Assembly (NCBI GenBank): GCA_001799845.1
Contig: MGUG01000040.1
Coordinates: 5,499-69,498 of the forward strand
Direction of reading: 5' to 3'
Length of the DNA: 64,000 nucleotides
Source: Elusimicrobia bacterium GWC2_64_44
Lineage (GTDB): Bacteria > Elusimicrobiota > Elusimicrobia > Elusimicrobiales > UBA9959
Position 1 is the stretch's first letter. Each line of letters begins with the position of its first letter. The notes beneath the pieces are model-generated. The model did no database searches and had not been told where the DNA came from. It saw only the letters and a program-made list of their open reading frames with translations. Positions 1,810 through 52,426 of this stretch are shown piece after piece. Both the position numbers and the translations under genes were made by a program.

Positions 1810-3045
1810 ATGAAAGACCAGTTACTCAAGAAGATAGAGACCTACGAGAATTACGCCATCGAGCTGCAGCGCGGCCTCACCGCCATCCCGGCGCTGGCCC
1901 CGTCCTCCGGCGGCGACGGCGAGTACGACAAGGCCAAGTGGCTGGAAGGCGAACTGAAGAAGCTGAAGTTCGACTCCATCGAGTGGATCAACGCCCCGCA
2001 GAAGGAAGCCAAGAACGGCATCCGCCCCAATATCATCGCCCGCTACAAGGGCAAAAGCAATAAGAAAACCATCTGGTTCATGGCCCACCTCGACATCGTC
2101 CCCCCCGGCGAGGCCAAGCTGTGGAAGTCAGACCCCTATAAGATGGAAGTGCAGGGCCGCAACCTGGTAGGCCGCGGCGTGGAAGACAACCAGCAGGCCA
2201 TAGCGTCGAGCATGATGGTGGTGAAGGCCATGATGGAGCTGGACTACCGGCCCGAGTACGACATAGCGCTGCTGTTCTGCGCCGACGAGGAGACCGGCTC
2301 CGGCTACGGCGCCGACTACATCTCCGACAACAGGCCCGACATCTTCGGCAAGGAAGACATGTTCTTCGTGCCCGACTCCGGCTGCGAGGACGGCTCGCTG
2401 ATAGAGGTGGCCGAGAAATCCATCATGTGGATGAAGGTCATAACGAAGGGCAAGCAATGCCACGCCAGCCGCCCGTCGCTGGGCATCAACGCCTTCAAGG
2501 CCGCCAGCGAACTGGTAGTGAAGTACCAGGGCCTCTACGAGAAGTTCCCCCACAAGGACGCGCTCTACGAGCCCCCGATCAGCACCTTCGAGCCCACCAA
2601 GAAAGAGGCCAATGTACCGAACGTCAACACCCTGCCCGGAGAGGACGTGTTCTACATGGACTGCCGCGTGATGCCGGTGTACCAGCTCACCGAGGTGAAA
2701 GCCGAGATGCGCCGCCTGGCCGACGAGGTTGAGGCCAAGCACGGCGTGAAGATCTCCTTCGAGCCGCAGCAGGAGGCGCAGGCCGCGCCCCCCACCGACC
2801 CGAACGCGGCCATAGTGGTGGAGCTGAAAAAGGCCATCAAGGAAATACTGAACGTGGAGCCCAAGGCCTACGGCATAGGCGGCGGCACGGTGGCGGCCTT
2901 CTTCCGCAGGCTCAACCTGCCGGTGGTGGTGTATTCCCGCCTCAACGAGACGGCCCACATGCCCAACGAGTCCTGCGTGATAGACCACATGATGGGCGAC
3001 GCCAAGGTGTTCACCGTCACCACGCTGAACCTCTGCGGGAAGTAA
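1810..3045 (+). CDS. M20-family metallopeptidase (ArgE/DapE/ACY1-like)
   Basis: HLDIVPPGE, GRGVEDNQQ and ADEETGS motifs; AAGGAG RBS. Confidence 0.85.
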   Translation: MKDQLLKKIETYENYAIELQRGLTAIPALAPSSGGDGEYDKAKWLEGELKKLKFDSIEWINAPQKEAKNGIRPNIIARYKGKSNKKTIWFMAHLDIVPPGEAKLWKSDPYKMEVQGRNLVGRGVEDNQQAIASSMMVVKAMMELDYRPEYDIALLFCADEETGSGYGADYISDNRPDIFGKEDMFFVPDSGCEDGSLIEVAEKSIMWMKVITKGKQCHASRPSLGINAFKAASELVVKYQGLYEKFPHKDALYEPPISTFEPTKKEANVPNVNTLPGEDVFYMDCRVMPVYQLTEVKAEMRRLADEVEAKHGVKISFEPQQEAQAAPPTDPNAAIVVELKKAIKEILNVEPKAYGIGGGTVAAFFRRLNLPVVVYSRLNETAHMPNESCVIDHMMGDAKVFTVTTLNLCGK

Positions 3046-3066
3046 AGGCTCCCGGGCAAAACTTAA

Positions 3067-3098
3067 AGAGGCGCGGGAATTATCCCGCGCCTCTTTTA
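3067..3098. terminator. rho-independent terminator, bidirectional
   Basis: agaggcgcggg-aattat-cccgcgcctct followed by tttt; lies between convergent genes. Confidence 0.7.
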
Positions 3099-3133
3099 TT
3101 ATCCCCCGCCGATCGGCTTAACTACTACCCGCC

Positions 3134-3643
3134 TTACCAGCTCATGCTTGACGTGCACGGCCTGTCATCGTGGGGAGTCATGCAGACAGCGCCGGAGGGA
3201 GGCGGCTTGGGCAGTGAGTTGTGAATACCATCCACCACATAGTCCACCACAGTATTCAAGTCGTCGGTCCAGCTGGAACCGCCTGCGCCCTTGGTCTGAG
3301 CGGCGACGGCGGTGATCTGCTTTACACTGGAGGCAAGCACCTTCCTGGCAGGCTTCGCGTTGATAAGCTGCTCCGCTGTCTGGCCATAGATGTTGCGTCC
3401 GGGCCCGGCCTTAGTGGAAGCGCCGCTCCCGGAGAGACCGAAGGCAGCGACGGAATTCTGTTTAGCCGCTGCGCCGCTGAAAAACCCGTCGAGGATGCTT
3501 CCCGCCTTGCCGAAATCTTTCTTCATATCCACGGCCGAAATCGCGTCCCCCGCGGAAGAAAGGCCCGCCATCGTATTTTCAGCCGCCAAGGCGGACGAAG
3601 CCGCCGCGAACACCGCTATTAACGCTATCATCACTTTTTTCAT
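3134..3643 (-). CDS. secreted hypothetical protein (Ala/Gly/Ser-rich)
   Basis: Internal start MKKVMIALIAVFAAASSALA (signal peptide) with AAGGGGA RBS; the track ORF start at 3694 is an upstream extension. Confidence 0.6.
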   Translation of the reverse strand: MKKVMIALIAVFAAASSALAAENTMAGLSSAGDAISAVDMKKDFGKAGSILDGFFSGAAAKQNSVAAFGLSGSGASTKAGPGRNIYGQTAEQLINAKPARKVLASSVKQITAVAAQTKGAGGSSWTDDLNTVVDYVVDGIHNSLPKPPPSGAVCMTPHDDRPCTSSMSW

Positions 3644-3688: not shown

Positions 3689-3705
3689 GAGCATTTTTTA
3701 TGCCA
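3689..3705 (-). promoter_or_regulatory. sigma-54-type -24/-12 promoter (copy 1 of exact 17-mer)
   Basis: Minus strand reads TGGCATAAAAAATGCTC. GG and GC are spaced exactly as in the consensus TGGCACG-N4-TTGCW. Sits 45 nt upstream of the ATG at 3643. Confidence 0.6.
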
Positions 3706-3872: not shown

Positions 3873-4934
3873 TTACTCCGCGCCGCGCTCGCCGGAGGCG
3901 GCGAGGCGCAGGTCCTGGCGGTACTGGGCGACGGAGCGGCGCGACAGGTCCACGCCGTGGCGGGCCTTCAGCTCGCCGCGCAGCCCCTCGTCGCTGAGCT
4001 CCGGCTTTTCGGAGGCCAGGACATAGAGCCGCTCCAGGTTGACCTGCTTGGAGGTGGGCAGCAGCACGTCCATGGGCGCCTGCATCCCCCACGGCATCTC
4101 CAGGGATTTGTTGGATACCAGGCGGTTGATCACGCTGGGGTCCACTTCCAGGTTCTTGGCCAGCGTCTTCTGCGACAGCGGCCGGCGGCGGCCGGGCTCG
4201 CCGGTGGCGAGGTACTCGGCCTGCACGCTTATCAAAATTTCCAGCGCGCGGTAGAGAGTGGTCTTGCGCTTGTCGGCGAACTCCACCTTGCGCAGCAGCT
4301 TCTCTATGCGGTCCCGCTCTGCCAGGTCCACCCCCGGCAGCAGCTGGGCCAGCTTGTCGGGGTCCACTTTATAGCGGCCTTTCCAGATCTCGCGGTTGAA
4401 GAAGGCCAGCTCGGGCTCGCCGTCCTTCAGCGTTATCCCGGCGACCGCGCTGTACACGGCGGCGGCGGGCGCCTCGGCCTTGCCCTCGAACTCGGCCTGG
4501 ATGAAGGCCCGGTTGACGAAGTCGCGCAGGCGCTCCGCGTCCTTCACGGAAATGTCGCATTCCTCGGCGCGCTCCACGTCGCTCATGACCGCGTCTTTCA
4601 GGAAGCAGGCCTCGAACTTCTCCTGGCCCACGCCCTGGATCAGCGCCACCAGGTCTCCGGAACCGTCGGCCAGCTCGGGCAGGTCGCCGCCGGAGAGCTT
4701 GAGCCCGTAACCGGCGTACTTGCGCGCGGCGTAGCGGGCGGACGGGAACTCGCTCAGGGTCAGCGCGCCGGAAGTCTTGAGCAGGTCGAAGACCCGCCCG
4801 CTTTCCAGCTCCTTGAGCGTCTTCGCGAATTCCTCTTCGCTCATGGCCGCCATCTGCGCCATCTTCAGCGCGCCCAGCACGGACGCTGAAGTCCTGGCGC
4901 CGGCCCCCGCGTTAAGTTTAAAGCCGTGTTTCAT
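3873..4934 (-). CDS. rpoN: RpoN (sigma-54) family protein, unusually short (353 aa), atypical region I
   Basis: C-terminal SRRSVAQYRQDL resembles the RpoN box ARRTVAKYR. PLSQKTLAKNLEVDPSVINRLVSNKSLEMPWG parallels the sigma-54 HTH region. KRKTTLYRALEILISVQAEYL parallels the conserved R-x-x-TL...Q..F segment. Confidence 0.65.
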   Translation of the reverse strand: MKHGFKLNAGAGARTSASVLGALKMAQMAAMSEEEFAKTLKELESGRVFDLLKTSGALTLSEFPSARYAARKYAGYGLKLSGGDLPELADGSGDLVALIQGVGQEKFEACFLKDAVMSDVERAEECDISVKDAERLRDFVNRAFIQAEFEGKAEAPAAAVYSAVAGITLKDGEPELAFFNREIWKGRYKVDPDKLAQLLPGVDLAERDRIEKLLRKVEFADKRKTTLYRALEILISVQAEYLATGEPGRRRPLSQKTLAKNLEVDPSVINRLVSNKSLEMPWGMQAPMDVLLPTSKQVNLERLYVLASEKPELSDEGLRGELKARHGVDLSRRSVAQYRQDLRLAASGERGAE

Positions 4935-4975: not shown

Positions 4976-4992
4976 GAACAATTTTTATGCCA
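4976..4992 (-). promoter_or_regulatory. degenerate -24/-12-like element upstream of the rpoN-like gene
   Basis: Minus strand reads TGGCATAAAAATTGTTC. GG to TTG spacing is correct, but the -12 reads TTGT, not TTGC. Sits 41 nt upstream of the ATG at 4934. Confidence 0.4.
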
Positions 4993-5037
4993 CGACAAGC
5001 GGCGTACGCCCCGGCGCGCGGAGCCGGCCCCAACTTC

Positions 5038-5045: not shown

Positions 5046-5100
5046 AGGGAACGGGGTTAAATCTTTTCATTTGAAAATATAGTTTCTCAGCGGAGAACTT

Positions 5101-6441
5101 ATGGATAAACTCAATATCTTCGTGCTGGAAGACGATAAACTGGCCCAGAAGGTGATGTGCGCGCACCTGGCGGCCCATTGCGTGGACCTGGCCTCCGACC
5201 TGAAGACCGCGCTGAAAAAGCTGGAGACGGGCAAGTACGACATCGGCTTCTTCGACCTGCTGCTCGGCCCCGGCGACGACTATTCCGGCCTGAAAGCCAT
5301 AGAGGCGGCGGCGGCGCGGGGCATACACTGCGTGGTGGTCTCCAGCTCCGACTCCGACGAGACCATAGACCGCGCCTACGCGCTGGGCGCCTCCGACTTC
5401 TACGCCAAGGGCAACGAGGAGGCCAACGTCGGCGAGATCCTGCGCAAGTTCGTGCAGAACCGCAAGGCCGCGGCCGCCACGGACATCTTCGCCTCCGCCT
5501 TCATCACCTGCGACCCCGAGACGCGGGCGATGGCGGCCGAAGCGCTGAAATACGCGCCGACCGAACTGCCCATCCTGGTGCTCGGCCCCTCCGGCACCGG
5601 CAAGACCTCGCTTGCGAAGATCCTGCACGAGCATTCCGGCCGCGACGGCGCCTTCGTCTCCATCAACTGCTCGGCCTACACCGAGGACCTGCTGGAGGCC
5701 GAGCTGTTCGGCTACCGCAAGGGCGCCTTCACCGGCGCGGCCGAGACCCGCAAGGGCCGCCTGCTCGAGGCGCACCGCGGCACGCTGTTCCTCGACGAGA
5801 TAGGCACGATGAGCCTGAACATGCAGATGAAGCTGCTGAAGGCCATAGAGGAGCGCTCGTTCTACCCGCTGGGCTCGGAGCGGCCGGAGCGCTCCGAATT
5901 CCGCATCATCAGCGCCACGCTGGAGGACCCGCAGGCCCTGATAGCCAGCGGCAGGATGCGCTTTGACCTGTTCCAGCGCGTGCACGGCTACACCATCAAC
6001 CTCAAGCCGCTGTCGCGCCGGCCCTGCGACCTCGCCCCGCTGCTGCTGCACTTCACCAAGGGCAGGCGCCGCCTGTCCTTCTCGCCCGAGGCGAAGGAGT
6101 TTATGGAGAGCTACGCCTGGCCCGGCAACGTGCGCGAGCTCAAGAAATTCACGGACCTGGTCTCGGGCGGCGCGGCGGGCCGCGTGGACCTGGAAATGGC
6201 CAGGAAACACCTGAAGGGGACCGAGGGGCCGCGGCCAGCGGCGCAGGACGGCGAGCTGTACGCCTACGCCCTGGCCCACGGCCTTGAGGCGGCGCTGGAA
6301 AAAGTTTCGGGGGATATAGTAGCGCGCAGCCTGCGCGAGAACGGCGGCAAGAAGACCAGGACGATGACCGACCTGAAGATCTCCACCCGCCTGCTTTACG
6401 CCACGCTGAAAAAACTGGGACTTGATACGGAGGGCAAATGA
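5101..6441 (+). CDS. sigma-54-dependent response regulator (REC + AAA+ + Fis-type HTH; NtrC class bEBP)
   Basis: REC domain with FFDLLL Asp, Walker [15 protein letters not shown] loop (YRKGAFTGA), C-terminal HTH. Confidence 0.9.
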
Positions 6442-6617
6442 CCGGTACCGACCACAGCAAACTCCTGCACGACCTGCGCTCTAAATGCTCCAGCCTTAAG
6501 AGCGCCGCCGAGCTTTACAAAGACTGCTCTCCGGCCGAGAAGAAAGAGATGCTGGCGCTGATGAACGCCGCCGCCGCAGAGATAACCCGGCTCCTTTCCT
6601 CCCTGGCCGCGGCCTGA
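6438..6617 (+). CDS. small ORF (59 aa) with H-box/DHp-like helical hairpin
   Basis: Below the track size cutoff. ATGA overlap with the bEBP stop, GGAGGG RBS, GC-rich third positions. Translation: [59 protein letters not shown]. Confidence 0.45.
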   Translation: MTGTDHSKLLHDLRSKCSSLKSAAELYKDCSPAEKKEMLALMNAAAAEITRLLSSLAAA

Positions 6618-6625
6618 CGGCCCGC

Positions 6626-7177
6626 TCACACCACCAGCAGCATCGCGCCCGCCGGGAACAGCAGTATCAGGCCCACCACTATCGCTATCCCCAGCAGGCC
6701 GGCCATGCAGGCGCCGAACAAGGTGCCTTCGGCTTCGTCCTGCGAGTACTCCTGGGCCGAAGCGCCGGCCTCGGCCGCCTCCCCCTCTACCGCCTCGGCC
6801 TTGATCTCTTCGCCTTTAGCCTCCGCCGCTACCCCCAGCTCATCGGACGCCGACTTGGAAAACCCGGCCCTGGCGGGAAGCTCCGGCATGGGAGCCGCTT
6901 TCAGCCCCGCGGCGCGGGGCGCGGCAGCGCGGGCGGGTTCGTAAACCGCCGCTCCGGAAAATCTCACGGGCTCCGCCGACGCGGCGGCAGCTTCGCCGCC
7001 GAACAGGCCAGCCAGCAGGGCCTCCGCCCCGGCCGTATCCCCGGAATCGGCCGCGTAAGCTATGCCGGCGGCCGCCGCTTCAAGACCGGCCGGCAGAGCA
7101 GCATGGGCCGCGCCGCCCGCCAATACCGGGCCCAGGGCCAGGACCGCCGCAAATACCGCTTTTATCTCTATCTTCAT
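6626..7177 (-). CDS. Ala-rich exported protein with C-terminal hydrophobic anchor
   Basis: Signal-like MKIEIKAVFAAVLALGPVLAGGAAHA; C-terminal LLGIAIVVGLILLFPAGAMLLVV. Confidence 0.6.
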   Translation of the reverse strand: MKIEIKAVFAAVLALGPVLAGGAAHAALPAGLEAAAAGIAYAADSGDTAGAEALLAGLFGGEAAAASAEPVRFSGAAVYEPARAAAPRAAGLKAAPMPELPARAGFSKSASDELGVAAEAKGEEIKAEAVEGEAAEAGASAQEYSQDEAEGTLFGACMAGLLGIAIVVGLILLFPAGAMLLVV

Positions 7178-7253: not shown

Positions 7254-7270
7254 GAGCATTTTTTATGCCA
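7254..7270 (-). promoter_or_regulatory. sigma-54-type -24/-12 promoter (copy 2 of exact 17-mer)
   Basis: Minus strand reads TGGCATAAAAAATGCTC, 76 nt upstream of the ATG at 7177. Confidence 0.6.
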
Positions 7271-7313
7271 GCGGCTAAGCTGGCACGGCGCCGCCCCTTT
7301 GAGGAGGTCTTTA

Positions 7314-11794: not shown

Positions 11795-12187
11795 TTAACG
11801 GCCCTTTTCCTTTTCCAGCTCGGCCTTTACCTCCGGCGGGATCTCCACCAGCTTCAGGTCGGGGCCGACGCAGACCAGGTCCGTCTCGGCCTTGCCGATG
11901 AGCTTGCCGTCCTGGTTGTGCAGGCTGTAGGCGAAGACGATGCGGTACGGCGTGAACTCCTTCACCCAGGTCTTGATCTCCAGCTCGTCGCCGTAGAGCG
12001 CCGGGGCCTTGTACTCCATCTCCTGCCGCCGCACGGCGAAGCCGACCCCGCGCTCGAGCAGGCCCTTCACGGTGAGCCCGCGCGCCTCCAGGTATTCCGA
12101 GCGCGCCTCCTCCAGGTATTTCAGGTAATTGGCGTGGTAGACCGCGCCGCTGGTGTCCGTGTCGTAGTAGTAGATGCGCCTTTTCAT
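11795..12187 (-). CDS. YbgC/4HBT-family acyl-CoA thioesterase
   Basis: YYYDTDTSGAVYHANYLKYLEEAR hotdog-fold signature. Confidence 0.8.
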   Translation of the reverse strand: MKRRIYYYDTDTSGAVYHANYLKYLEEARSEYLEARGLTVKGLLERGVGFAVRRQEMEYKAPALYGDELEIKTWVKEFTPYRIVFAYSLHNQDGKLIGKAETDLVCVGPDLKLVEIPPEVKAELEKEKGR

Positions 12188-12604
12188 TTATTCTCCGATT
12201 ATCTTTACCAGCACGCGTTTGTCGCGCTGCCCGTCGAACTCGCCGTAGAAGATCCTCTCCCACGGCCCGAAATCCAGCCGGCCCTTCGTGACGGCCACCA
12301 CCGCCTCGCGGCCCATGATGGTGCGCTTGAGGTGCGCGTCGCCGTTGTCCTCGCCCGTGAGGTTGTGCCGGTAGCCGCGGGCGTCGTAGGGCGCCAGCTT
12401 CTCCACCCACTGCAGGAAGTCCTGGTGCAGGCCGCCCTCGTTGTCGTTGATGAAGACGCTGGCGGTGATGTGCATGGCGTTCACCAGGCACAGGCCTTCC
12501 TTGATCCCGCTCTTCGCCAGCTCGGCCTCCACCTTGGGGGTGATATGCACGATGGCGCAGCGCTCGGGAGTGTTGAACGTAAGATAGGCGGTATGGGCTT
12601 TCAT
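12188..12604 (-). CDS. YjbQ/UPF0047 family (secondary thiamine-phosphate synthase-like)
   Basis: Internal ATG start [10 protein letters not shown]...[18 protein letters not shown]...GDAHLKR. The track ORF is extended upstream to 12985. Confidence 0.8.
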
Positions 12605-12670
12605 GGGTCCCCCGTAAAAACGGCTGAAAACGTGTAAATATTCTACAAACTTTGCGAGTTGCCGGGGATT

Positions 12671-12679
12671 TGCTATAAT
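12671..12679 (+). promoter_or_regulatory. extended -10 TGCTATAAT, 6 nt before the rpmB ATG (leaderless geometry)
   Basis: TTGCGA-N16-TATAAT-aagtcc-ATG; no SD. Confidence 0.5.
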
Positions 12680-12685
12680 AAGTCC

Positions 12686-12880
12686 ATGGCTTACAAATGC
12701 GAACTTTGCGGCAAAAAGGCCGTTTCCGGTAACTCCTACAGCCATTCTCACAGAGCTACCAAACGGACCTTCAAGCCCAACCTTCAGAAACAGAAGATAG
12801 TGCACGCCGGCAAGACCCAGTCCGTCTACGTCTGCACCATCTGCATCAAGAGCGGCAAAGCGGTGCGCCCGGCCAAGTAG
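12686..12880 (+). CDS. rpmB: 50S ribosomal protein L28 (Cys-containing form)
   Basis: [34 protein letters not shown] matches the L28 core. CxxC...CxxC present. Confidence 0.9.
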
Positions 12881-12915
12881 GCCGAGCCTCCCCTTCGCTG
12901 CCCTGTTAAGGTTAA

Positions 12916-37394: not shown

Positions 37395-38483
<1,089 letters not shown>

Positions 38484-38534
38484 TGTGTTTTTCCTCCGTG
38501 ATCTAAATTCTTCCCTTATAGTCTAGCAGGCCAT

Positions 38535-38554
38535 CCCGACAAGGGCGTGTCGGG
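38535..38554. promoter_or_regulatory. inverted repeat CCCGACA-N6-TGTCGGG overlapping the putative recA -35
   Basis: On the minus strand, TTGTCG-N16-TATAAG lies upstream of the recA RBS. Candidate operator. Confidence 0.3.
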
Positions 38555-38602
38555 AACTTTTCGGCCAGAAAATATTTTTTAAGGCCGCCCGGTGCTTTTG
38601 TT

Positions 38603-38612
38603 ATGTTAACAT
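38603..38612. promoter_or_regulatory. perfect 10-bp palindrome ATGTTAACAT in the recA-lexA intergenic region
   Basis: Seen directly; function unknown. Confidence 0.25.
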
Positions 38613-38723
38613 TTATTTCCCAATTTGCCGAGCTCCTGCCTGTTTAGTATAGATGATTAACGCCCATCTGTCAAGTATTAAGGAGGTATTGACTTTACCG
38701 GTTTAATATATTATCCTTAATAT

Positions 38724-39380
38724 ATGCACCCCATACAAGAGAAGCTGCTTAACCTCTCCAAAGAAACCAACCTGGCCCAGGTCAGCCTGCGCGAAATGGC
38801 CGCCGCCATCGGCCTGCCGGGCGAGTCCCCCCAGAAGATAAAGCACCACCTGCAGCAGCTCGAGAAGAAAGGCTTCTTCACCATAGACCGCTCCCATGGC
38901 CTGATGGAAAAAGCCTCGCTGCTGCCCGGGCTAGCGAGCGGCCTGCTCAAAGAGGCCTCCTCGTTATTCTCCATACCTATAATAGGCACGGCCAACTGCG
39001 GCCCCGCCACGCTTTACGCCGAGCAGAACTTCGAGGGCTTCCTGCGCGTCTCCGGGCGGCTGCTCGGCCGCGCCAGCCCGGCGGGCCTCTACGGCATAAA
39101 GACCAACGGCTCCTCCATGAACCGCGCCGAGATAGCCGGCAAGAAGATAGAGGACGGCGACTATGTGGTGATAGACAGCAATAAGCGCGTGCCCGCCAAC
39201 AACGACATAGTGCTGGCCATCATAGACAACAAGGCCACCATCAAGCGCTTCATTGACGACCGCGCCAACGGCCAGGTCATCCTGAAGGCCGACTCCTCCT
39301 ACGACTACGACCCCATCTACCTGCACCCCGACGACGACTTCCTCATCAACGGCAAAGCCATCGCCGTCATCAAGAAGTAG
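38724..39380 (+). CDS. lexA: LexA-like S24 repressor
   Basis: Winged-helix N-terminus (SPQKIKHHLQQLEKKGFF), GSSMN Ser and ATIKRF Lys dyad. Divergent from recA. Confidence 0.75.
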   Translation: MHPIQEKLLNLSKETNLAQVSLREMAAAIGLPGESPQKIKHHLQQLEKKGFFTIDRSHGLMEKASLLPGLASGLLKEASSLFSIPIIGTANCGPATLYAEQNFEGFLRVSGRLLGRASPAGLYGIKTNGSSMNRAEIAGKKIEDGDYVVIDSNKRVPANNDIVLAIIDNKATIKRFIDDRANGQVILKADSSYDYDPIYLHPDDDFLINGKAIAVIKK

Positions 39381-39448
39381 GGACGTTGTTGAGTTGTTGA
39401 CTTTTTAACCGGCATAGCCAACAACTCAACAACTCAACAACGTCCCCT
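39379..39448. repeat. 20-bp perfect inverted repeat built from CAACAAC units
   Basis: GGGACGTTGTTGAGTTGTTG ... CAACAACTCAACAACGTCCC. The right arm is preceded by an extra caacaact unit. Confidence 0.8.
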
Positions 39449-39455
39449 AGTTATT

Positions 39456-39758
39456 ATGAAGAACAATAAAACACATTACGGCAGCGGCTGGAGCAAGCTG
39501 GAATTTTTGACCAAAGTCCGCGACCTCCACAGGTCCAATCCCTCGGGCGTGACTTTCCGGATCACTACCCAGGGGCACAGTTCCCGGCCAAACCGGATCA
39601 GCCATTATGTGAGGGAAGCCGGCCTGGTGTCAATGAACAGCAAAGGCATCAGGCTGGGAAGCGCCGGGAATGATTCCGGCTTCGAGACCATCAACTACGC
39701 TGAAACGATGGGGATCTCCTACACCTTGCCGAACAATACGCATCACAGGCTATATTAG
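39456..39758 (+). CDS. hypothetical protein (100 aa) in the low-G+C insert
   Basis: ORF followed by a strong terminator; composition atypical for the window. Confidence 0.45.
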   Translation: MKNNKTHYGSGWSKLEFLTKVRDLHRSNPSGVTFRITTQGHSSRPNRISHYVREAGLVSMNSKGIRLGSAGNDSGFETINYAETMGISYTLPNNTHHRLY

Positions 39759-39771
39759 TTCCCCGTTAAAC

Positions 39772-39804
39772 AAAACCCCCCGGCCTTCCGGGGGTTTTTG
39801 TTTT
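39772..39804. terminator. bidirectional rho-independent terminator
   Basis: aaaacccccgg-cctt-ccgggggtttt. A second AT-rich palindrome, atacaacaa-aa-ttgttgtat, lies at 39817-39836. Confidence 0.75.
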
Positions 39805-39907
39805 AAACCGGCACCTATACAACAAAATTGTTGTATTTTCATAGCAACCCCGCCAGGCTCGCCGAGCGGCAGTCCCAAGCAAACAGTAAATCCATTTCTT
39901 TAATATC

Positions 39908-41332
39908 CTATTTTGATGAAATCTCGGTTACATACAGAAGCTTGTCATTTATCTCTTTGGCTTCCAGCGCAACCCCACTTAAGACAAGCTCTTTTTTCTC
40001 AAGCGCCATGCATTTTTGAGCATTTGGGCCTACCAAAGTATAGGGACCGCAACACGCGGCGCTGCCGCCCGGGCATCGCCCGACAATGCACGGGGGGTGC
40101 ACCGTCGCTAAAGCTTTTGAGTAATCGTCGACGCGCTTGAGGAATTCTTTAAGTTGGGATATTGAATCCTCGGCCTTTTTCGCGTATTCGCTGGCTGGAT
40201 AGTTTTGCACAACAGCTGAATACCTGGAAATAATCCCGGCGATAAAATCATCCGGGGAAGACGGAAGTCGCGCATAAATCCATGCCACCGCATTCTCTTC
40301 TTCGGGGACGTTCATCAAGTCGGGCACGAGTTTCCTGAGGAAGTCCGCTGATTCACACAAGATTTCTGGAGCGTGCTGACTATTAGGATACTTATCGACA
40401 TACTTCTGGTAAGTGTCTGACAGGTCCACCGCCCTGTCGGTATCACCGCCTTCAAAATAAATCCCAGGCAAATGCCAAATAAGAAGATAATCCGCCTCCG
40501 CTGCGTAGCTGCTCTTCGGATAGTCGAGGACTACTTTCCTAAAAATTTTATATGCAGGCTCACGCCAGATCGACACCTCCCCCTCTATCGCAAAGTCTGA
40601 CAAGAAATCATAGTACAGCTTACCCAACGCAAACAGGTTTTCTGCCTTAGCGTCGTCCCCGGAATTGCCAAGCTTTTCCTCTTGCGCGGTGATGCGCGCA
40701 ACCCAATCTATGTACCGCCTCGCATCCTTGCCATACTTACTACCCGGGAAAGAGGAGATGAGAACTTGGAATTCATCACTCGCACTCTGAAACGGATTGT
40801 TCCCTGTATGGGTATGGTAGTAGTAAGCTAAAGCATATTGCGCGTCAGGAAGCATCTTATGGTGCGGATTCTCAGAGATAAATTCCCGCAATTTCTCTAT
40901 AGGACATCCCGGCCAATTCCCTATTCTATGCAGGAACACACTGCGGAGAGCATAATCGGCAAAACCCCTCCCATATCGCGAGGCCGGGAAGGAACTGACA
41001 ACGCCCTCAAATTGAGACACAGCATTGCGATAGTCACATTCACGATAATAGGCTACGCCAGTTTCGTACATTGCCTGCGGCACATAGTCCGTGCCTGGAT
41101 ACATCGCGATAATTTTGCCGCAAATCTCCCGCGTGTCGGGCGGAGATAATTGTTGAATGCGCATCAGGGCCGCTTCCGGCTTGCTGGTATCGATCTGTTC
41201 TTTAGTTATCTCCCGACGCGGCGGCTGCATGAAGCGAGTCACGGGTTTACCAGAAGGCTGCCGAAAAAGAAAAAACCATACAATAATCGGCAGGATCGCC
41301 ACGCCGATTAAAAGATATATTTTATCTTTCAT
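39908..41332 (-). CDS. membrane-anchored TPR/BamD-YbgF-like repeat protein (474 aa), low G+C
   Basis: N-terminal TM IYLLIGVAILPIIVWFFLF. Six or more repeats of the [FY]P.S.Y...A.Y pattern. Cys-rich C-terminus. Confidence 0.65.
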   Translation of the reverse strand: MKDKIYLLIGVAILPIIVWFFLFRQPSGKPVTRFMQPPRREITKEQIDTSKPEAALMRIQQLSPPDTREICGKIIAMYPGTDYVPQAMYETGVAYYRECDYRNAVSQFEGVVSSFPASRYGRGFADYALRSVFLHRIGNWPGCPIEKLREFISENPHHKMLPDAQYALAYYYHTHTGNNPFQSASDEFQVLISSFPGSKYGKDARRYIDWVARITAQEEKLGNSGDDAKAENLFALGKLYYDFLSDFAIEGEVSIWREPAYKIFRKVVLDYPKSSYAAEADYLLIWHLPGIYFEGGDTDRAVDLSDTYQKYVDKYPNSQHAPEILCESADFLRKLVPDLMNVPEEENAVAWIYARLPSSPDDFIAGIISRYSAVVQNYPASEYAKKAEDSISQLKEFLKRVDDYSKALATVHPPCIVGRCPGGSAACCGPYTLVGPNAQKCMALEKKELVLSGVALEAKEINDKLLYVTEISSK

Positions 41333-41477
41333 TGATTACTTACCCGCCCCTGCATATCGTATCAAATATTCGAAGAATTCCAAGCGAAACCTGACCGGGC
41401 AGGCAGGGGTATAACTTAATGACCATTTATCCGCGTTCCACGCTGGTTTGAGCAAAGATACTCATTTGGAATTAGCG

Positions 41478-41519
41478 CCCCCCCCAAAAAAAACCAAAAC
41501 GACCGAATCACCCCCCCCC
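41478..41519. repeat. homopolymer tracts C8-A8 and C9 in a divergent promoter region
   Basis: C run 41478-41485, A run 41486-41493, C run 41511-41519. Confidence 0.9.
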
Positions 41520-41564
41520 GGCCGGAATATTTTACTTGCCTCCGCGGGCCGGAATAGGTTTAAT

Positions 41565-41583
41565 TTGACAGTAGTCAATTGAC
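41565..41583. promoter_or_regulatory. TTGAC-agta-GTCAA-TTGAC palindromic cluster just upstream of the S1 protease RBS
   Basis: GTCAATTGAC is a perfect 10-bp palindrome. A 10-bp direct repeat GGCCGGAATA occurs at 41520 and 41547. Confidence 0.3.
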
Positions 41584-41595
41584 CGGAGGCAACTC

Positions 41596-42558
41596 ATGAA
41601 GAAAACCACACTGTTCGCCGCGGCCCTCGCGCTCTGCGCTGGTTCCGCTTTCGCCAACGATAAAGTAATTTACGGCGCGGACGACCGCCTGGACATCTAT
41701 CAGGTCACCGACGCCAAGCTCCTGAAGCTGGCCGACTCCACCGTGGGCCTGTTCCAGGGCTCGGACGTCTATCTCAGCGGCGACAAAGCCCACCTGACCA
41801 CCGAATCCTACGCCGACGGCTACGGCCTCTGCAAGGAAGAGCCTTTCTACGAACAGAACACCGGCGCCTTCTGCTCCGGCTCCCTGGTGGCCCCGGACGT
41901 CATCATGACCGCCGGCCACTGCGTTAAGAGCGAGTCCGCCTGCACCACCACCAAGTTCGTTTTCGGCTTCGCCGTCACCCAGAAGGGCGTAACGCCCTCC
42001 CAGGTGCCCGCCTCGGAAGTCTACTCCTGCGCGCAGCTCATAGGCCGCGAGCAGGTGGGCACCGGCGCCGACTGGGCGCTGATCCGCCTGGACCGCAAAG
42101 TCACCGGCCATGAGCCGCTTAAATACGACGCCTCCGGCGCGGTCAAGAACGGCGACCAGCTGGTGGTTATCGGCCACCCGGCCGGCCTGCCCACTAAAGT
42201 GGCCGGCGGCGCCACCGTGCGCGACGCCTCGCCCAACGGCTACTTCGTGGCCAACCTCGACACCTACGGCGGCAACTCGGGCTCCGCCGTGTTCAGCGCC
42301 AAGACCGGCGTGATCGTGGGCATTTTGGTGCGCGGCGAGAACGACTACGTCTACAAGGACGACTGCCGCGTCTCCAACGTGTGCACCTCCGACGGCTGCC
42401 GCGGCGAGGACGTGACCAAGCTCTCCGCCGTCACTTCTCCCTTCAGCAAGGCCTCCGCCGAAGCCGTAGGCACCGCGGTGGAAACCGCCGCCGCCCCCAT
42501 GGCCAAGGCCTCACCGGCTTTCGAACTGCTCAAGACCGTGGCGCCCGAACTGAACTAG
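41596..42558 (+). CDS. secreted trypsin-fold serine protease (S1B/V8-like)
   Basis: MTAGHC, DWALIRLD and GGNSGSAVF triad motifs; signal peptide; GGAGG RBS. Confidence 0.8.
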   Translation: MKKTTLFAAALALCAGSAFANDKVIYGADDRLDIYQVTDAKLLKLADSTVGLFQGSDVYLSGDKAHLTTESYADGYGLCKEEPFYEQNTGAFCSGSLVAPDVIMTAGHCVKSESACTTTKFVFGFAVTQKGVTPSQVPASEVYSCAQLIGREQVGTGADWALIRLDRKVTGHEPLKYDASGAVKNGDQLVVIGHPAGLPTKVAGGATVRDASPNGYFVANLDTYGGNSGSAVFSAKTGVIVGILVRGENDYVYKDDCRVSNVCTSDGCRGEDVTKLSAVTSPFSKASAEAVGTAVETAAAPMAKASPAFELLKTVAPELN

Positions 42559-46179: not shown

Positions 46180-46428
46180 ATGGCAAACGAAAAATTCATG
46201 AAAACGATGCAGCCTGACGCCGAACTGGGCGCCGTGATAGGCAACGAGCCGGTCGCCCGCCCCACCGCGGTCAAGAAGATCTGGGACTACATCAAGAAGA
46301 ACAACCTTCAGGACAAGGTCAACAAGCGCAATATCAATGCCGACGAGAAGCTGCTGAAAGTCTTCGCCGGTAAAAAGCAGGTCACGATGTTCGAACTGGC
46401 CGGCATCCTGGGCAAGCACCTGAAATAA
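46180..46428 (+). CDS. SWIB/MDM2-domain protein (82 aa)
   Basis: AVKKIWDYIKKNNLQDKVNKRNINADEKLLKVF matches the SWIB core pattern; AAGGAG RBS. Confidence 0.8.
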   Translation: MANEKFMKTMQPDAELGAVIGNEPVARPTAVKKIWDYIKKNNLQDKVNKRNINADEKLLKVFAGKKQVTMFELAGILGKHLK

Positions 46429-46845: not shown

Positions 46846-46869
46846 TTTGCTCCGTACACCGCTCCGCGA

Positions 46870-46886
46870 TGGCATAAAAAATGCTC
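46870..46886 (+). promoter_or_regulatory. sigma-54-type -24/-12 promoter (copy 3 of exact 17-mer)
   Basis: TGGCATAAAAAATGCTC on the plus strand, 43 nt upstream of the ATG at 46930. Confidence 0.6.
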
Positions 46887-46929: not shown

Positions 46930-47856
46930 ATGAAAAAGACAACTATCCTTACGGCGGTGTTCGCGGCGGTCCTGGCCTCGGCTTCTTTAGCCGGCGCCCA
47001 GGCAGTGAACCAGGATTTCGACGGGAAGGCAAGCCGCGATTTCGTCAGCCTTAAGCAGCTGGTGACAGAAAACGCGCCCGAAGTAAAACTGGACGGGCTC
47101 AAGGCCGACCGCCTGCCCGGCCATTACGAGCCGGAGACGGCCTGCCAGACGCTGCACCTCATCGACAGGGACGGCACCGCCCCCACCTGGCGGACCACCC
47201 TCTCCAGCGATTACATGATGCAATACTGGGAGACCGACCACTACGGCAACAGCCACTCCTACTGGGCTTCCGCCGCCAGCTACAACATCCAGGTACAGTT
47301 AAAGACCGGCTACCGCCAGCTGCGCGACAGGGAAACGGAGTACATAAAGGTCTGCTACGACTTTTACTACAAGCGCGAATCGTACAGCGTGACCAGCCCC
47401 TTCACCTATGAAGTCATAAAAAGGGCGCTACCCGGCAACGTCTCGGGCTTCTCCCTGGAGCTTATACCCCTCGGCAGGACGCCCCAGGCCCCGGAAGCCT
47501 CGGCGATGGAACTCTCGGAGTTCTCCTACGATCACGCCTCGAAGCAATTCACGCTGCTGGTGAAGAGCAACTTCTCCAGCGACTACTACGGGCACAAGGT
47601 GGAGTTCTCCGTAGAGCTGATGCGGGACGGTCTCTTCGATTCCTCAAAAGGCAAGCAGACCTACGAAGCGGAAATAAACGCCGCCTCCGGCAGCTACATC
47701 ATGAAGTTCAAAGAAGGAGACCTGCCCAAGAGCCTGGAGGCCGGCGAGTCCCGCGCCAAGGACAAGAAGTTCTTCGTGAAATGGGGCTTCTCTGTTAAAG
47801 GCACAGGCGCTTTCGTGGACAAAGGCCGTACCGACCCCGTTACCGTGCCCCAGTAA
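46930..47856 (+). CDS. secreted hypothetical protein (308 aa)
   Basis: Signal peptide MKKTTILTAVFAAVLASASLAGAQA; Tyr/Ser-rich, beta-rich-looking sequence. Confidence 0.6.
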   Translation: MKKTTILTAVFAAVLASASLAGAQAVNQDFDGKASRDFVSLKQLVTENAPEVKLDGLKADRLPGHYEPETACQTLHLIDRDGTAPTWRTTLSSDYMMQYWETDHYGNSHSYWASAASYNIQVQLKTGYRQLRDRETEYIKVCYDFYYKRESYSVTSPFTYEVIKRALPGNVSGFSLELIPLGRTPQAPEASAMELSEFSYDHASKQFTLLVKSNFSSDYYGHKVEFSVELMRDGLFDSSKGKQTYEAEINAASGSYIMKFKEGDLPKSLEAGESRAKDKKFFVKWGFSVKGTGAFVDKGRTDPVTVPQ

Positions 47857-47963: not shown

Positions 47964-50900
47964 TCAGGTCCGGGCGGCCGGGCCGGCGGGGCGGGCGCAG
48001 GGCAGGGTAACGCTGGCCGCGGTGCCCCTCCCGGGTTCGCTTTGCAGCTCTATGGTCCCGCCGTGGAAATCCACGATGTTCCGGCACACGGCGAGCCCCA
48101 GGCCGGTGCCCTTGGCCTTGGTGGTGAAGAAAGGGTCGAAGGCCCGGTCCAGGGTCTCTTTGTCTATCCCCTTGCCCGAGTCCCTTACGGTTATGCGGAC
48201 GGAGCCGTTCTCCCGCGCTCCGGAGACCTCTATTTTCCCAGGGCCGCCCTCCAGCGCGTCGGCGGCGTTATTGAGCAGGTTATTTAACACTTCCCGCACC
48301 TGTATCGGGTCGGCCTCTATGTAAACGCCCGCGAGGCCGCCCAGGTCGCGGCCAATGCTCAGACTCCCCTTGGAATTCTCCTCGGCGCCGCCCACCGACT
48401 CTTCCAGCAGGTCGAGGATAGCCACCCGCTCGTAATGCGGCGGCTTCAGGCGCGAATAGAAGAGCAGGTTGTTTATGATCTGGTTGCTCTCGAAAACTTT
48501 CTTGTCGATGTTGTCGAGGTGGCGCTGCAGGTCCGGATTTTTGGCCTTGCGCTTTATGTTCACGGCGGCTATGCCGATGGTGGCCAGCGGGTTGCGCAGC
48601 TCGTGGGCCACGGTGGCGGCCAGGGTGCCTATGTCCGACAGCCGCTTGGCCCGGGCCAACTCCGCCTGGGCGGCCAGCAGCCCGGCTTCGAAAGCCTTCT
48701 GCTCCGTCACGTCGTGCACGGTCCCCATCCGGCGCAGCTGGCCGCCGTCGGCGCCGTAAACCAGGGTAAGGCTCTCGTGCACACATTTTATCCGGCCGTC
48801 CTTCATCCGCAGCCTGTAGTCCAGCTCGCCGGCGGCCGGGCCGGCGGCGCCGGCATAAGCGCCGCGCACCTTCTCCCTGTCTTCGGGGTGCACCAGCGCC
48901 AGGAAATTCTCGACGGAGGCGCTCACCGTCTCGGGATCCTGTTCCAGGATGCGGTAGAGCTCTTTGGACCAGGTCAGCTGGCCGGTGGGCAGGTCCAGTT
49001 CCCAGACGCCCACGCGGGCCATGCGCTGCACCTCTTCCTCGGAGAGCCGGTGGGCCGCGCGCAGCCGCATGGTGCGCAGGCCGTAGGCCAGGTCGTCGGC
49101 CAGCCGCGAAAGCAGGGCCACTTCCTCCCCGGCCTGCAGGCTGCCCGGGGTTTTAGAATAGATGTTCAGCGCCCCGAAAGCCTTACCGCCGGCCAGCAGC
49201 GGCAGGGCCAGCGTGGACGCGTAGCCCCGGGCCAGGGCTTCGCCGCGCCAGGGGGCGAAAGCCGGGTCGGTATGAATGTCGCCGCAGCCCACTGGCTTGC
49301 CCGTGCGTATGGCGGTGCCGGTGGGCCCGCGGCCGGTCGGTCCGTCCCCCCACGTGATATTAAGTTTCTTGAGATAGCCGGCCTCGAAGCCGGCCTGGGC
49401 CGCGGGCCGCACGGTCTTCGCCTCGTCCTGCTCGGCGAAGCCCACCCAGACGAAGGGATGGCCGCAGTCCTCCACGATTATCCGGCACATCATCTCCAGG
49501 TACTCCTGCTCGCTCTCGGCGTGCAGCATGGCCTGGTCGCTGTTCCCGCGCGCTCTCAGCGCCCGGTTCAGTTTGGCGTGCTCTATCTCCCTGTTCCTGC
49601 GCTCGGTAATGTCGTGAGACATTCCCACCGAACGGATTATCACCCCGGCGCCGTCGCGCACGTGGGTACAGCGCTCATGCACATAGCGCACCTCGCCGGT
49701 GCCGCGCCGCAGCACCCGGTGCTCCGTCTCGTAGGTATCCCGGCCTTCGCGCAGCGACCCTGTATACGCTTCGTTCACCAGTGCGCGGTCGTCCGGATGC
49801 ACCGCCTCCAGGAAGGTTTCATAGGTGGCGGCTATCTCTCCCGGCTCATAACCGAAGATCCGGTACGCCTCGTCGGACCAGGTCAAAACGTTCTTCACCA
49901 GGTCCAGCTCCCAGCTGCCGAGGTGGGCTATTTCCTGGGCCTTATTGAGACGCTGTTCGCTCTCCTTCAGAGAGCCGGTCAGCTCCTCGCGCTCCGCCAG
50001 GGTCCTGGCCAGGCTGATATTGCCGAAGCTGAGCCTGGAGATGATATGGGCCATCTTCAGGAAGAAGCCCATGGTGGTGTCCAGGGATTCCCGCCTGAGC
50101 CGCGGGATGCGCTCGAAGGCGGCCAGGTACGCGGCCTCGTCGAAGCCGTAGCGCCCGGCCTGCGCCCGGAAGAATTCCCGGTCCGGCGGGTCGTCCTGCA
50201 GGAAGAACTGGCCGATAAAGAGGTTCCCGGTATGCCTGCCGCCCAGCATGATGGGTGTGGCCACGTCCCAGAGGCCGTTCTTGCATTTGTAAAGCCGGAA
50301 CTCTCCGGGCGGCACGCCCGCGGTAAGCTGGGTGTCGCTCTCCACGCAGTTAGCGCAAGCTTGCGGATGCACCCGGTGGAATTTAGTGCAGAGGTCCTGC
50401 CAGCCCACGCCCACCAGCACCCGGCCCTTCAGGTCTATGATGGCCATGGGGATCTTCGCCAGGGCGTAAAAATCGTCCATCAGGCCCTGGAACTCTTTCG
50501 CGTCTATGATGTCAGAAAGCTCCAGTTTCCCTATATCCCCCTGCGGGGCCAATATGCTCTCGATCTTCAGCCTGACGCGGCTTTCGCTCTCCTTCAGGTC
50601 CGCCAGGTAAAGCTCCCTTTCCTGTTCGGCGCGCTTGCGCTCTATCACTTCGGCGTCCAGCATATCGCGGGACGCCGTGGTCTTTTTTAAATTCTCCGTC
50701 ATGGCGTCGAAAGCGCGCGACAGCGCTCCTATTTCGTCGCGCCGCGAGGTCCCAACCTTGTAATCCAGGTTCCCGCCGCCCACAGCGGCCGCGCCCTCGG
50801 CAAGTTTTTCCAGGGGCACCGAAACCGAGCGCGACAGGGAAAGCGCCGTAATCCCTGAGACCACAAAAATCAGGCCCAGTATCGCCAGCAGCAGGTTCCT

Positions 50901-51812: not shown

Positions 51813-52426
51813 AACAGTCCCGCGCCCAGCAGCACGAACAGCGCCGCCGTGACGAAAGCCATCGCCGAATTTGTTCCGGGCACGAAATAGTAGAGGCGCG
51901 GCGCGTCCGCGGCGTAGCCGGCCAGCGCCACCGCCCCCACGGCGGCCACCAGCCAGCCGGGAAGTTTGAGCCACCGGCGGGAGAGGAAGGGAATGTGCAT
52001 GGCAAGCAGGCCGGCCGCCGCGAACACCAGGAAATTCAGCGCCGTAGGCAGCGACGGCCGCCCGGGGACCACGGTCTTCACGCCGCCAGGGAGCTCCTTA
52101 ACGAACAGGTCCTCCAGCCCGGTATGCGCGCCCAAGAGGCTGGAGAAAAACAAGGTCCCCATTATGAGCAGCAGAGGCAAAGAGGTGAGATACAGCGCCA
52201 CCTGCGCCCTGTCTGCCTCCCCCTCGGCGGCCAGGGCCACGAAGTAAAGGGTTACGCCGCTCAGCGCGAAGGAGAGGGCGGTGATGAACTTCATGGAGAC
52301 CCAGCCGGGGAAAACGCTCTTCAGCGCGCCGATATCGAAGATCCAGCCCGCCATCACCAGGAGCCCGGCCGCGAACACCGCGCCGGCCAGTATCTTTGCC
52401 GCTTTTATTTTGGTCGCCTGTTCCAT
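51788..52426 (-). CDS. six-TM membrane protein resembling N-terminal sensor modules of kinases
   Basis: GWIFDIGALKSVFPGWVSMKFITALSFALSG motif. Stop overlaps the HK start by 25 nt. Confidence 0.6.
   Translation of the reverse strand: MEQATKIKAAKILAGAVFAAGLLVMAGWIFDIGALKSVFPGWVSMKFITALSFALSGVTLYFVALAAEGEADRAQVALYLTSLPLLLIMGTLFFSSLLGAHTGLEDLFVKELPGGVKTVVPGRPSLPTALNFLVFAAAGLLAMHIPFLSRRWLKLPGWLVAAVGAVALAGYAADAPRLYYFVPGTNSAMAFVTAALFVLLGAGLLCLSDPNS

Follow-up and report, generated by a model that had tools for sequence, protein, structure and literature searches.

A short sigma-54-like protein of Elusimicrobia as a candidate minimal enhancer-dependent sigma factor

Positions 3873 to 4934 of a 64,000-nucleotide stretch of contig MGUG01000040.1 from Elusimicrobia bacterium GWC2_64_44 (the whole of this stretch is referred to below as the window) encode a 353-residue protein that is homologous to the RNA polymerase sigma factor sigma-54 (RpoN). 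The protein nevertheless fails three tests by which that family is recognized: the Pfam models for the activator-interacting (AID) and core-binding (CBD) domains, as well as the cutoff of the NCBIfam rpoN equivalog TIGR02395 (59.1 bits versus the 277.35 required). Comparison of the protein, its promoters and its gene neighbourhood with those of its relatives suggests that the open reading frame (ORF) probably encodes a functional minimal sigma-54-type sigma factor, termed here mini-sigma-54, which would form part of a self-activating module.

Domain organization of the 353-residue protein

The gene and the segments of its product, as delineated by the analyses described below, are as follows.

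3873..4934, minus strand: mini-sigma-54-like gene, an intact ORF of 353 amino acids (aa) with a ratio of nonsynonymous to synonymous substitution rates (dN/dS) below 0.5 in every segment
4770..4934, minus strand: residues 1-55, divergent Gln-poor region I (activator-interacting region), assigned from an in-register profile-profile match and the helices of an AlphaFold 2 (AF2) model
4584..4769, minus strand: residues 56-117, family-specific, highly constrained segment found where canonical sigma-54 has region II and the N-terminal core-binding subdomain
4335..4583, minus strand: residues 118-200, what is left of the core-binding domain's C-terminal part, aligned by hhalign to E. coli 231-310, with helix-turn-helix (HTH)-like helices and β-strands
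3876..4334, minus strand: residues 201-353, extra-long helix, HTH and RpoN domain, assigned from the Pfam DNA-binding domain (DBD), PDB sequence and profile matches, and AF2 secondary structure
4116-4172, minus strand: HTH, residues 255-273
3918-3944, minus strand: RpoN box SRRSVAQYR

The preliminary description of this DNA regarded the protein as a short member of the RpoN family whose C-terminal part is the sigma-54 DNA-binding region, and both views are borne out. Sigma54_DBD is the sole Pfam domain in the protein (residues 219-350; 57.9 bits, where the cutoff is 22.8; E 1.4e-15). Sequence searches of the PDB matched sigma-54 through residues ~200-350 only, the best match being the Aquifex structure 5ui5 (1.4e-4 with the single sequence and 2e-12 with the family profile). 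When the full-length AF2 model (predicted local distance difference test (pLDDT) score 71) was compared with the PDB by Foldseek, the top 27 matches were all sigma-54 chains, with E-values down to 1e-7; the low TM-scores of these matches are as expected, because the protein is multi-domain. An alignment of the mini-sigma-54 family (A3) was also compared by hhalign with a canonical alignment (A4), which comprised E. coli RpoN together with nine rpoN genes carried on plasmids of Alpha- and Betaproteobacteria, Bacteroidota, Bacillota and Fusobacteriota. Residues 118-353 matched E. coli 231-477 with a probability of 99.7% (E 3e-26). The E. coli sequence alone, set against the family profile, reached back to residue 282 only, and the ten-sequence A4 was needed to reach residue 231.

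The residues through which sigma-54 contacts its promoters are kept within this region. The HTH segment SVINRLVSNKS pairs with STISRVTTQKY of the E. coli protein, such that R383 and K388 of the latter correspond to R271 and K276, and the RpoN box (residues 331-339) differs from ARRTVAKYR by three substitutions (A to S, T to S and K to Q). The retained DNA-contact residues comprise R271, K276, R332, R333, Y338 and R339, of which R332, R333 and R339 hardly vary in A3 and Y338 does not vary in alignment A1.

The profile hidden Markov model (HMM) check with the AID, CBD and DBD models thus recovered the DBD only. A normal region I and core-binding domain did not appear and, as HMM coverage is not normal for these two parts, the protein is still unusual. 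The canonical sigma-54s used as controls were recognized by all three models. The most divergent of them, the Fusobacterium (407 aa), Lacticaseibacillus (431 aa) and Phocaeicola proteins, still scored 144-183 bits for the CBD, 136-164 for the DBD and 33-50 for the AID; the ranges for all canonical controls together were 144-217, 136-237 and 33-60 bits, respectively.

The AID and CBD models could not decide the nature of the N-terminus (MKHGFKLNAGAGARTSASVLGALKMAQMAAMSEEEF), and profile-profile comparison was therefore used. When the N-termini alone were compared by hhalign, canonical region I was matched in register by residues 2-53 (score 26.3, P 1.2e-5, probability 81%), MSEEEF being paired with LSTLEL and ELESGRVF with LESNPLL. 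The best column-shuffled control scored 13.6, and 0 of 200 reached the real score. AF2 predicts three helices for the segment (pLDDT 88-93). The in-register profile match therefore indicates that the N-terminus is a divergent region I, and the earlier view that it stands in place of region I was not upheld. The low glutamine content noted at the same time was confirmed, at 2% compared with 6-26% in ten canonical sigma-54s; the canonical Fusobacterium protein is likewise Gln-poor (6%). On the profile evidence, region I is present in a divergent, Gln-poor form and has not been replaced.

The larger anomaly, which the preliminary description missed, is on this evidence the loss of region II together with the N-terminal half of the core-binding domain. 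In the hhalign comparison, homology to canonical sigma-54 picks up again only at E. coli residue 231. Of the Pfam core-binding domain, which spans E. coli ~116-303, only the stretch equivalent to E. coli 231-310 could be detected. Residues 60-120 displayed no significant similarity to E. coli 100-235, and an eye-catching alignment of VGQEKFEACFL with GVGARDLRECLL was rejected, its score being reached by 21 of 100 shuffles. The AF2 model of residues 1-170 (pLDDT 80), in which helices are well defined at 13-55 and 93-150 and confidence is low at 64-92, found no significant match in the PDB by Foldseek. Its weak top matches were sigma-70-family factors and winged-helix proteins (the best was sigma-32, E 0.28), and the sigma-54 core-binding domain 2k9l ranked 36th with an E-value of 5. 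As there was no significant fold match, no fold-level homology is claimed for residues 56-117. This segment is at least as constrained as the DNA-binding half, and is no loose linker. Against six orthologues, dN/dS was 0.03-0.32 in the N-terminal segments, including residues 56-117, compared with 0.16-0.48 in the DNA-binding half, and many of the invariant positions of A1 fall within the segment (A66, A70, A74, G75, P86, L88, D90, G91, G103 and F107).

Promoters and gene neighbourhood

Four closely similar promoters of the -24/-12 type, of the form TGGCAT-A5-(A/T)TG(C/T), were located in the window.

4977..4992, minus strand: promoter TGGCATAAAAATTGTT of the mini-sigma gene, 29.9 bits, with an equivalent site in about 36-40 related loci
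3690..3705, minus strand: promoter TGGCATAAAAAATGCT, 62 nt upstream of the ATG at 3643
7255..7270, minus strand: promoter TGGCATAAAAAATGCT, 93 nt upstream of the ATG at 7177
46870..46885, plus strand: promoter TGGCATAAAAAATGCT, 60 nt upstream of the ATG at 46930

The element TGGCATAAAAAATGC occurs three times in identical form (3691-3705 and 7256-7270 on the minus strand, 46870-46884 on the plus strand), and TGGCATAAAAATTG once (4979-4992, minus strand), 58 nt upstream of the ATG of the mini-sigma gene itself. Shuffles of the window never gave as many 14-mer matches (mean 0.24), and a weight matrix derived from related loci scored the four sites at 27-35 bits, with nothing else above 12 bits in the 64 kb. 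All four lie between genes in the correct orientation, with a start codon 58-93 nt downstream, and display the canonical GG-N10-GC spacing. The promoter of the sigma-like gene recurs in about 36-40 loci, where it lies either 58-66 nt or ~175 nt upstream of the ATG. Related Elusimicrobiota DNA, 1.19 Mb in all, contained 87 TGGCAY-N6-TGCN sites with the consensus TTGGCAT-AWAAA-TTGCTCT, in which the -12 element (TTGCT) is canonical; ATGCT is a minority variant that is found together with TTGCT in single genomes. The window promoters had been described as deviating uniformly from the sigma-54 consensus, with TGGCAT for TGGCAC, an A-tract spacer and ATGC at -12. This holds in part: the TGGCAT-A5 sites are real and ATGC is present in three of them, but the relatives mostly carry TGGCAT-AWAAA-TTGCT, which is essentially canonical. 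TGGCAT is a common natural variant of TGGCAC.

Two further elements were noted close to these promoters. In three of the four, TGGCAT is preceded at a distance of 8-20 nt by a CCGTRCNCCGCT-like element (at ~4997-5012, 7275-7290 and 46850-46865). The sequence TATTATAC, upstream of three promoters, was considered as an activator site and rejected; it was not counted because its reverse complement can be read as a TATAAT -10 box of the divergent genes in two of the three cases.

The mini-sigma gene is surrounded by the following features, the last of which lies at a distance in the window.

5101..6441, plus strand: gene for a bacterial enhancer-binding protein (bEBP), divergent from the mini-sigma gene, with a receiver (REC) domain and a sigma-54-interaction AAA+ domain (Sigma54_activat, 184 bits; Response_reg; motif KGAFTGAA)
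6438..6617, plus strand: 59-aa ORF overlapping the bEBP stop codon, with an H-box-like motif and a weak HisKA match (E 0.015)
5064..5077, no strand: perfect palindrome TTTTCATTTGAAAA in the bEBP-sigma intergenic region, a candidate activator-binding site
3134..3643, minus strand: predicted target, 169 aa, signal-peptide-like N-terminus, no Pfam family
6626..7177, minus strand: predicted target, 183 aa, Ala-rich, signal-peptide-like N-terminus, hydrophobic C-terminus, no Pfam family
46930..47856, plus strand: predicted target, 308 aa, signal-peptide-like N-terminus (DFDG family), no Pfam family

The linkage of the sigma-like gene to an activator gene is conserved. An orthologue of the bEBP gene adjoins it in most of 78 loci from Elusimicrobiota: near relatives have the two genes in divergent orientation, and more distant clades have the bEBP gene immediately upstream on the same strand. 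The GAFTGA motif is present in 60 of 60 bEBP orthologues. The same linkage was found on two distant, taxonomically unassigned contigs (L091/L092 and L093): one, with 29% G+C, carries a sigma-then-bEBP operon whose activator has GAFTDA, and the other, with 63% G+C, has the order bEBP, small ORF, sigma. Sigma-54-type promoters adjoin the sigma and bEBP genes in distant lineages as well; here TTGGCATAATTTTTGCC and TTGGCATCCATTTTGCT adjoin the module and lie upstream of ketoacyl-synthase operons.

A homologue of the 59-aa ORF directly follows the bEBP gene in nearly all of the 78 loci. Where the genes form an operon, this homologue is located between the bEBP and sigma genes, and a small ORF of related sequence occupies that place in the distant locus L093. 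The 59-aa ORF may encode a stand-alone HisKA/DHp-like phosphotransfer or phosphatase partner of the REC domain, and may constitute a third member of the module. In the locus L090 (7143-8396 on a contig with 56% G+C), an 85-aa ORF with an H-box-like motif occupies the same position; the mini-sigma-54 gene there comes after this ORF and the gene for a REC-GAF-HisKA kinase, and is convergent with a FliA-like gene of the sigma-70 family and an operon for flagellar export (flhA, flhB, fliP, fliQ, fliR, fliM and fliN).

The palindrome TTTTCATTTGAAAA is a candidate activator-binding site, as judged by the position of related sequences. Of 36 sigma-gene promoters, 18 have TTTYCA-NN-TGRAAA at 76-118 nt upstream of TGGCAT; of 54 other promoters, 12 have it within 250 nt upstream. 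Viewed from the palindrome, 30 of the 43 sites in 1.25 Mb of DNA are located within 250 nt upstream of a sigma-54-type promoter. Two groups of small proteins, which were sorted by eye and have signal-peptide-like N-termini, recur as targets in relatives and correspond to the products of 7177..6626 and 46930..47856, and in some genomes radical S-adenosylmethionine (SAM) clusters are targets. Convergent with the target at 46930-47856 is a gene (47964-51974, minus strand) for a 1336-aa sensor kinase with the architecture dCache-HAMP-PocR-PAS-GAF-HisKA-HATPase; it is possible that this kinase is the sensor for the orphan REC-type bEBP.

A mechanism consistent with these observations can be outlined. 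The HTH and RpoN box, whose homology is observed, would read the -24/-12 promoters TGGCAT-N5-(T/A)TGCT, the presence of which is likewise observed. Region I and the long helix would hold the closed complex locked, as suggested by their homology and the conserved gene linkage, until the neighbouring bEBP, once phosphorylated, remodels that complex through its GAFTGA loops from the upstream palindrome. Contact with core RNA polymerase, the weakest step of the scheme, would presumably be made by residues 56-117 and the remnant at 118-200. With a promoter of its own type and a candidate activator site ~100 nt upstream, the sigma factor would amplify its own synthesis, and the loop would turn on a small regulon whose genes encode proteins with signal-peptide-like N-termini.

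Family distribution and comparison with known sigma-54 factors

The closest relatives of the protein (50-93% identity, ~350 aa, DBD as the only Pfam domain) come from metagenome-assembled genomes (MAGs) of Elusimicrobia/Elusimicrobiales, and are mostly annotated as "hypothetical protein", with a few designated "RNA polymerase sigma-54 factor". The 78 loci were obtained from a scan of one genome per species; their titles are mostly Elusimicrobiota, with a few "bacterium", all are from MAGs or a single-cell genome, and none is titled Elusimicrobium minutum. A profile search of 1.84 billion representative proteins recovered at least 247 clusters (50% identity) at E<=1e-30. Among the matches listed, the proteins comprise 340-390 aa and match the profile over its full length, save for fragments and two long fusions. 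One cluster is from Candidatus Aerophobetes; the family also occurs in Elusimicrobiota and on unclassified metagenome contigs, mostly under the annotation "hypothetical". Sigma54_DBD was identified in 125 of 125 family members scanned. The size of the family and its constant architecture, together with the fact that the canonical controls still score for the AID and CBD, therefore indicate a distinct, deep and large branch of the sigma-54 family, and no sporadic truncation. No description of this family was found in the literature searched.

Some members depart from the common arrangement. Two proteins, P0121 (914 aa; L093 8001-10745) and P0123 (839 aa), carry an extension of ~500 aa after the RpoN domain that has no Pfam match and reflects either a fusion or a gene-calling artefact. 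In L094 (the contig of L029), two paralogous mini-sigma-54 genes (2447-3505 and 11842-12900) are separated by 9 kb. After each come a tiny ORF (55 and 41 aa) and then radical-SAM, PqqD, ABC transporter and MFS genes, with no adjacent bEBP. These loci look like clusters for ribosomally synthesized and post-translationally modified peptides with a sigma factor of their own.

Sigma-54 has been treated as one uniform three-domain family, in which the grip on the core enzyme is attributed to E. coli residues ~120-215. In comparison with the 477-aa E. coli protein, mini-sigma-54 is homologous from residue 231 to the C-terminus, has region I in register, and shares both the GG-N10-GC promoters and the GAFTGA activator partner. 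It differs in having a Gln-poor region I and in lacking region II and a counterpart of E. coli ~120-230. Its scores are also lower (58 versus 136-237 bits for the DBD; 59 versus 277 for TIGR02395), and its gene is linked to that of its activator behind a promoter of its own type. Aquifex aeolicus sigma-54 (398 aa) naturally lacks most of region II. It resembles mini-sigma-54 in being short, in having no long acidic region II and in providing the best sequence match among solved structures (5ui5, 2e-12), but it keeps a complete core-binding domain of two subdomains (2k9l/2k9m), which the 170 N-terminal residues of the mini form do not match. The rpoN2 gene of Rhizobium etli and the rpoN copies of Rhodobacter sphaeroides are said to encode full-length RpoN proteins with all three Pfam domains, alongside a primary copy. 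They reportedly share with the mini family a sigma-54 gene behind a sigma-54-type promoter, the presence of several copies and their dedicated tasks. The multiple rpoN copies of Rhodobacter are also cited in a survey of sigma-54 (PMC12316311).

That survey defines sigma-54 by the presence of all three Pfam domains and dismisses proteins with some of them, including the RpoN-like sequence of Neisseria and partial-domain "RpoN" matches in Actinomycetota, as non-functional (PMC12316311). The mini family would therefore be missed under this definition. It resembles the Neisseria and Actinomycetota proteins in failing the three-domain test; it differs from them in being large, constrained and syntenic with an activator, and in having an intact DNA-binding part, with the missing part internal and N-terminal. 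A portable module of comparable layout is found on the mobilizable 65-kb plasmid NZ_CP052066.1 of Lacticaseibacillus paracasei (L086), in which an rpoN gene is divergent from that of a sigma-54-interacting regulator and adjoins target genes of the phosphotransferase system; the sigma factor of the plasmid is, however, canonical (AID 50, CBD 144 and DBD 162 bits).

A bolder proposal, which we put forward as possible though short of probable, is that Elusimicrobiota, Aerophobetes and other uncultured lineages have no enhancer-dependent sigma factor apart from the mini-sigma-54 clade (about 350-390 aa). Under this proposal, the proteins would bind the core enzyme through a new 60-aa segment, without region II and the N-terminal core-binding subdomain, and would travel as a self-activating sigma/activator/DHp-like module, and surveys based on three Pfam domains would have mis-scored these phyla. 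A natural, widespread and strongly constrained form without region II and that subdomain, but with region I, the DNA-binding half, a GAFTGA activator and canonical promoters, would in itself define a minimal sigma-54 and point to an alternative solution for core binding. It would also correct surveys and annotation pipelines that call the proteins "hypothetical" or the phyla sigma-54-negative, and would give synthetic biology a compact cassette of sigma factor, activator and promoter. The A/T-rich spacer of the promoters, in a genome with 64% G+C, also bears on the idea that high G+C makes sigma-54 promoters hard to tell from background (PMC12316311).

Alternative readings

Several points weigh against the view that the protein is a functional sigma factor within a self-activating loop. 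In E. coli sigma-54, a fragment covering residues ~120-215 is the main determinant of core binding, for which it is reported to be sufficient, and no counterpart of E. coli ~57-230 (region II and the N-terminal core-binding subdomain) was detectable in mini-sigma-54 by profile or by fold. Neither Sigma54_AID (PF00309) nor Sigma54_CBD matched the 353-aa protein even at E<=1, and the 25 Pfam families with the most frequent matches in 125 family members include neither model. Even the most divergent canonical sigma-54 tested, the 407-aa Fusobacterium protein, scored 146 bits for the CBD and 33 bits for the AID. In addition, a gene behind the promoter of its own sigma factor needs a primer, and in Rhizobium etli a sigma-54-dependent rpoN2 reportedly stands beside a primary rpoN1, which would fit the view of the mini gene as a second copy.

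The strongest of the alternatives, although we consider it rather unlikely, is that the protein is a dedicated second sigma-54 paralogue, working beside a canonical RpoN encoded at another place in the genome to insulate a small module that has its own activator and its own promoters, comparable to the multiple rpoN copies of Rhodobacter or rpoN2 of Rhizobium etli. The gene lies behind a sigma-54-type promoter, and known cases of this arrangement are said to imply a primary sigma-54 that starts the loop; the mini gene occurs in duplicate or triplicate in several genomes, and some copies lie directly upstream of radical-SAM/PqqD/ABC clusters in the manner of pathway-specific regulators; and the module is compact and recurs in distant lineages. 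Conversely, in distant clades, where the gene follows the bEBP gene in the same orientation, there is no TGGCAY-N6-TGC site immediately upstream, which suggests that expression there is independent of sigma-54. Insulation from a canonical RpoN would also be hard to achieve, because both the promoter determinants and the DNA-contact residues are canonical. A search by tblastn with E. coli RpoN, LptB and Hpf identified neither a canonical rpoN nor its usual neighbourhood in the window and the 78 loci, which make up a small part of the genomes. Similarly, tblastn revealed neither a canonical region I nor a canonical CBD in 1.25 Mb of DNA from Elusimicrobiota, weak evidence in that it concerns local neighbourhoods only. 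Two surveys found no RpoN in the cultured or complete Elusimicrobia genomes available in 2011 (two genomes), and Francke et al. reported that Elusimicrobium minutum is also without enhancer-binding proteins (PMC3162934; PMC3372290).

The absence of a counterpart to E. coli ~57-230, which includes the main core-binding subdomain, from a protein whose DNA-binding half is intact is also what would be expected of a derivative that is no longer a sigma factor, and which acts as a repressor, decoy or anti-activator, by occupying -24/-12 sites or by titrating the activator. This is unlikely. Region I, the long helix and the core-binding remnant are under purifying selection, and would be needless in a simple occluder of DNA, while the segment that replaces the missing part is the most constrained of the protein. 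The linkage to a GAFTGA activator and to target promoters is kept on the two distant contigs, and such a derivative would require a canonical sigma-54, none of which was seen in the neighbourhoods searched from these genomes.

A functional mini-sigma-54 is likewise favoured over the version given in the preliminary description, according to which region I was replaced and promoters and sigma factor evolved together towards another specificity (TGGCAT, A-tract, ATGC). ATGC is indeed carried by three identical sites among the four of the window, and the RpoN box differs from ARRTVAKYR at three positions. However, region I is a homologue of canonical region I, the sites have the GG-N10-GC geometry of canonical promoters, the DNA-contact residues are retained, and TGGCAT is, as mentioned above, a frequent form of the -24 element. 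Relatives with the same recognition residues mostly have TTGCT, the consensus in the 78 related loci, and ATGCT occurs side by side with TTGCT within genomes. Co-evolution of sigma factor and promoters is therefore not supported, and we regard this version as very improbable. That the gene is a truncated remnant or pseudogene of rpoN, as its short length and the lack of the Pfam AID and CBD might suggest, is negligibly probable given at least 247 clusters of the same length and architecture, dN/dS well below 1, and conserved synteny and promoters.

Elsewhere in the window, scans for tRNAs and Rfam elements found none in the 64 kb. The region 38000-42000 has a G+C content of 0.52-0.56, compared with ~0.64 elsewhere in the window, and may be foreign DNA. 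An ORF at 46180-46428 (plus strand) encodes an 82-aa SWIB/MDM2-domain protein (92 bits), a domain that is, to our knowledge, unusual in bacteria outside Chlamydiae and their relatives.

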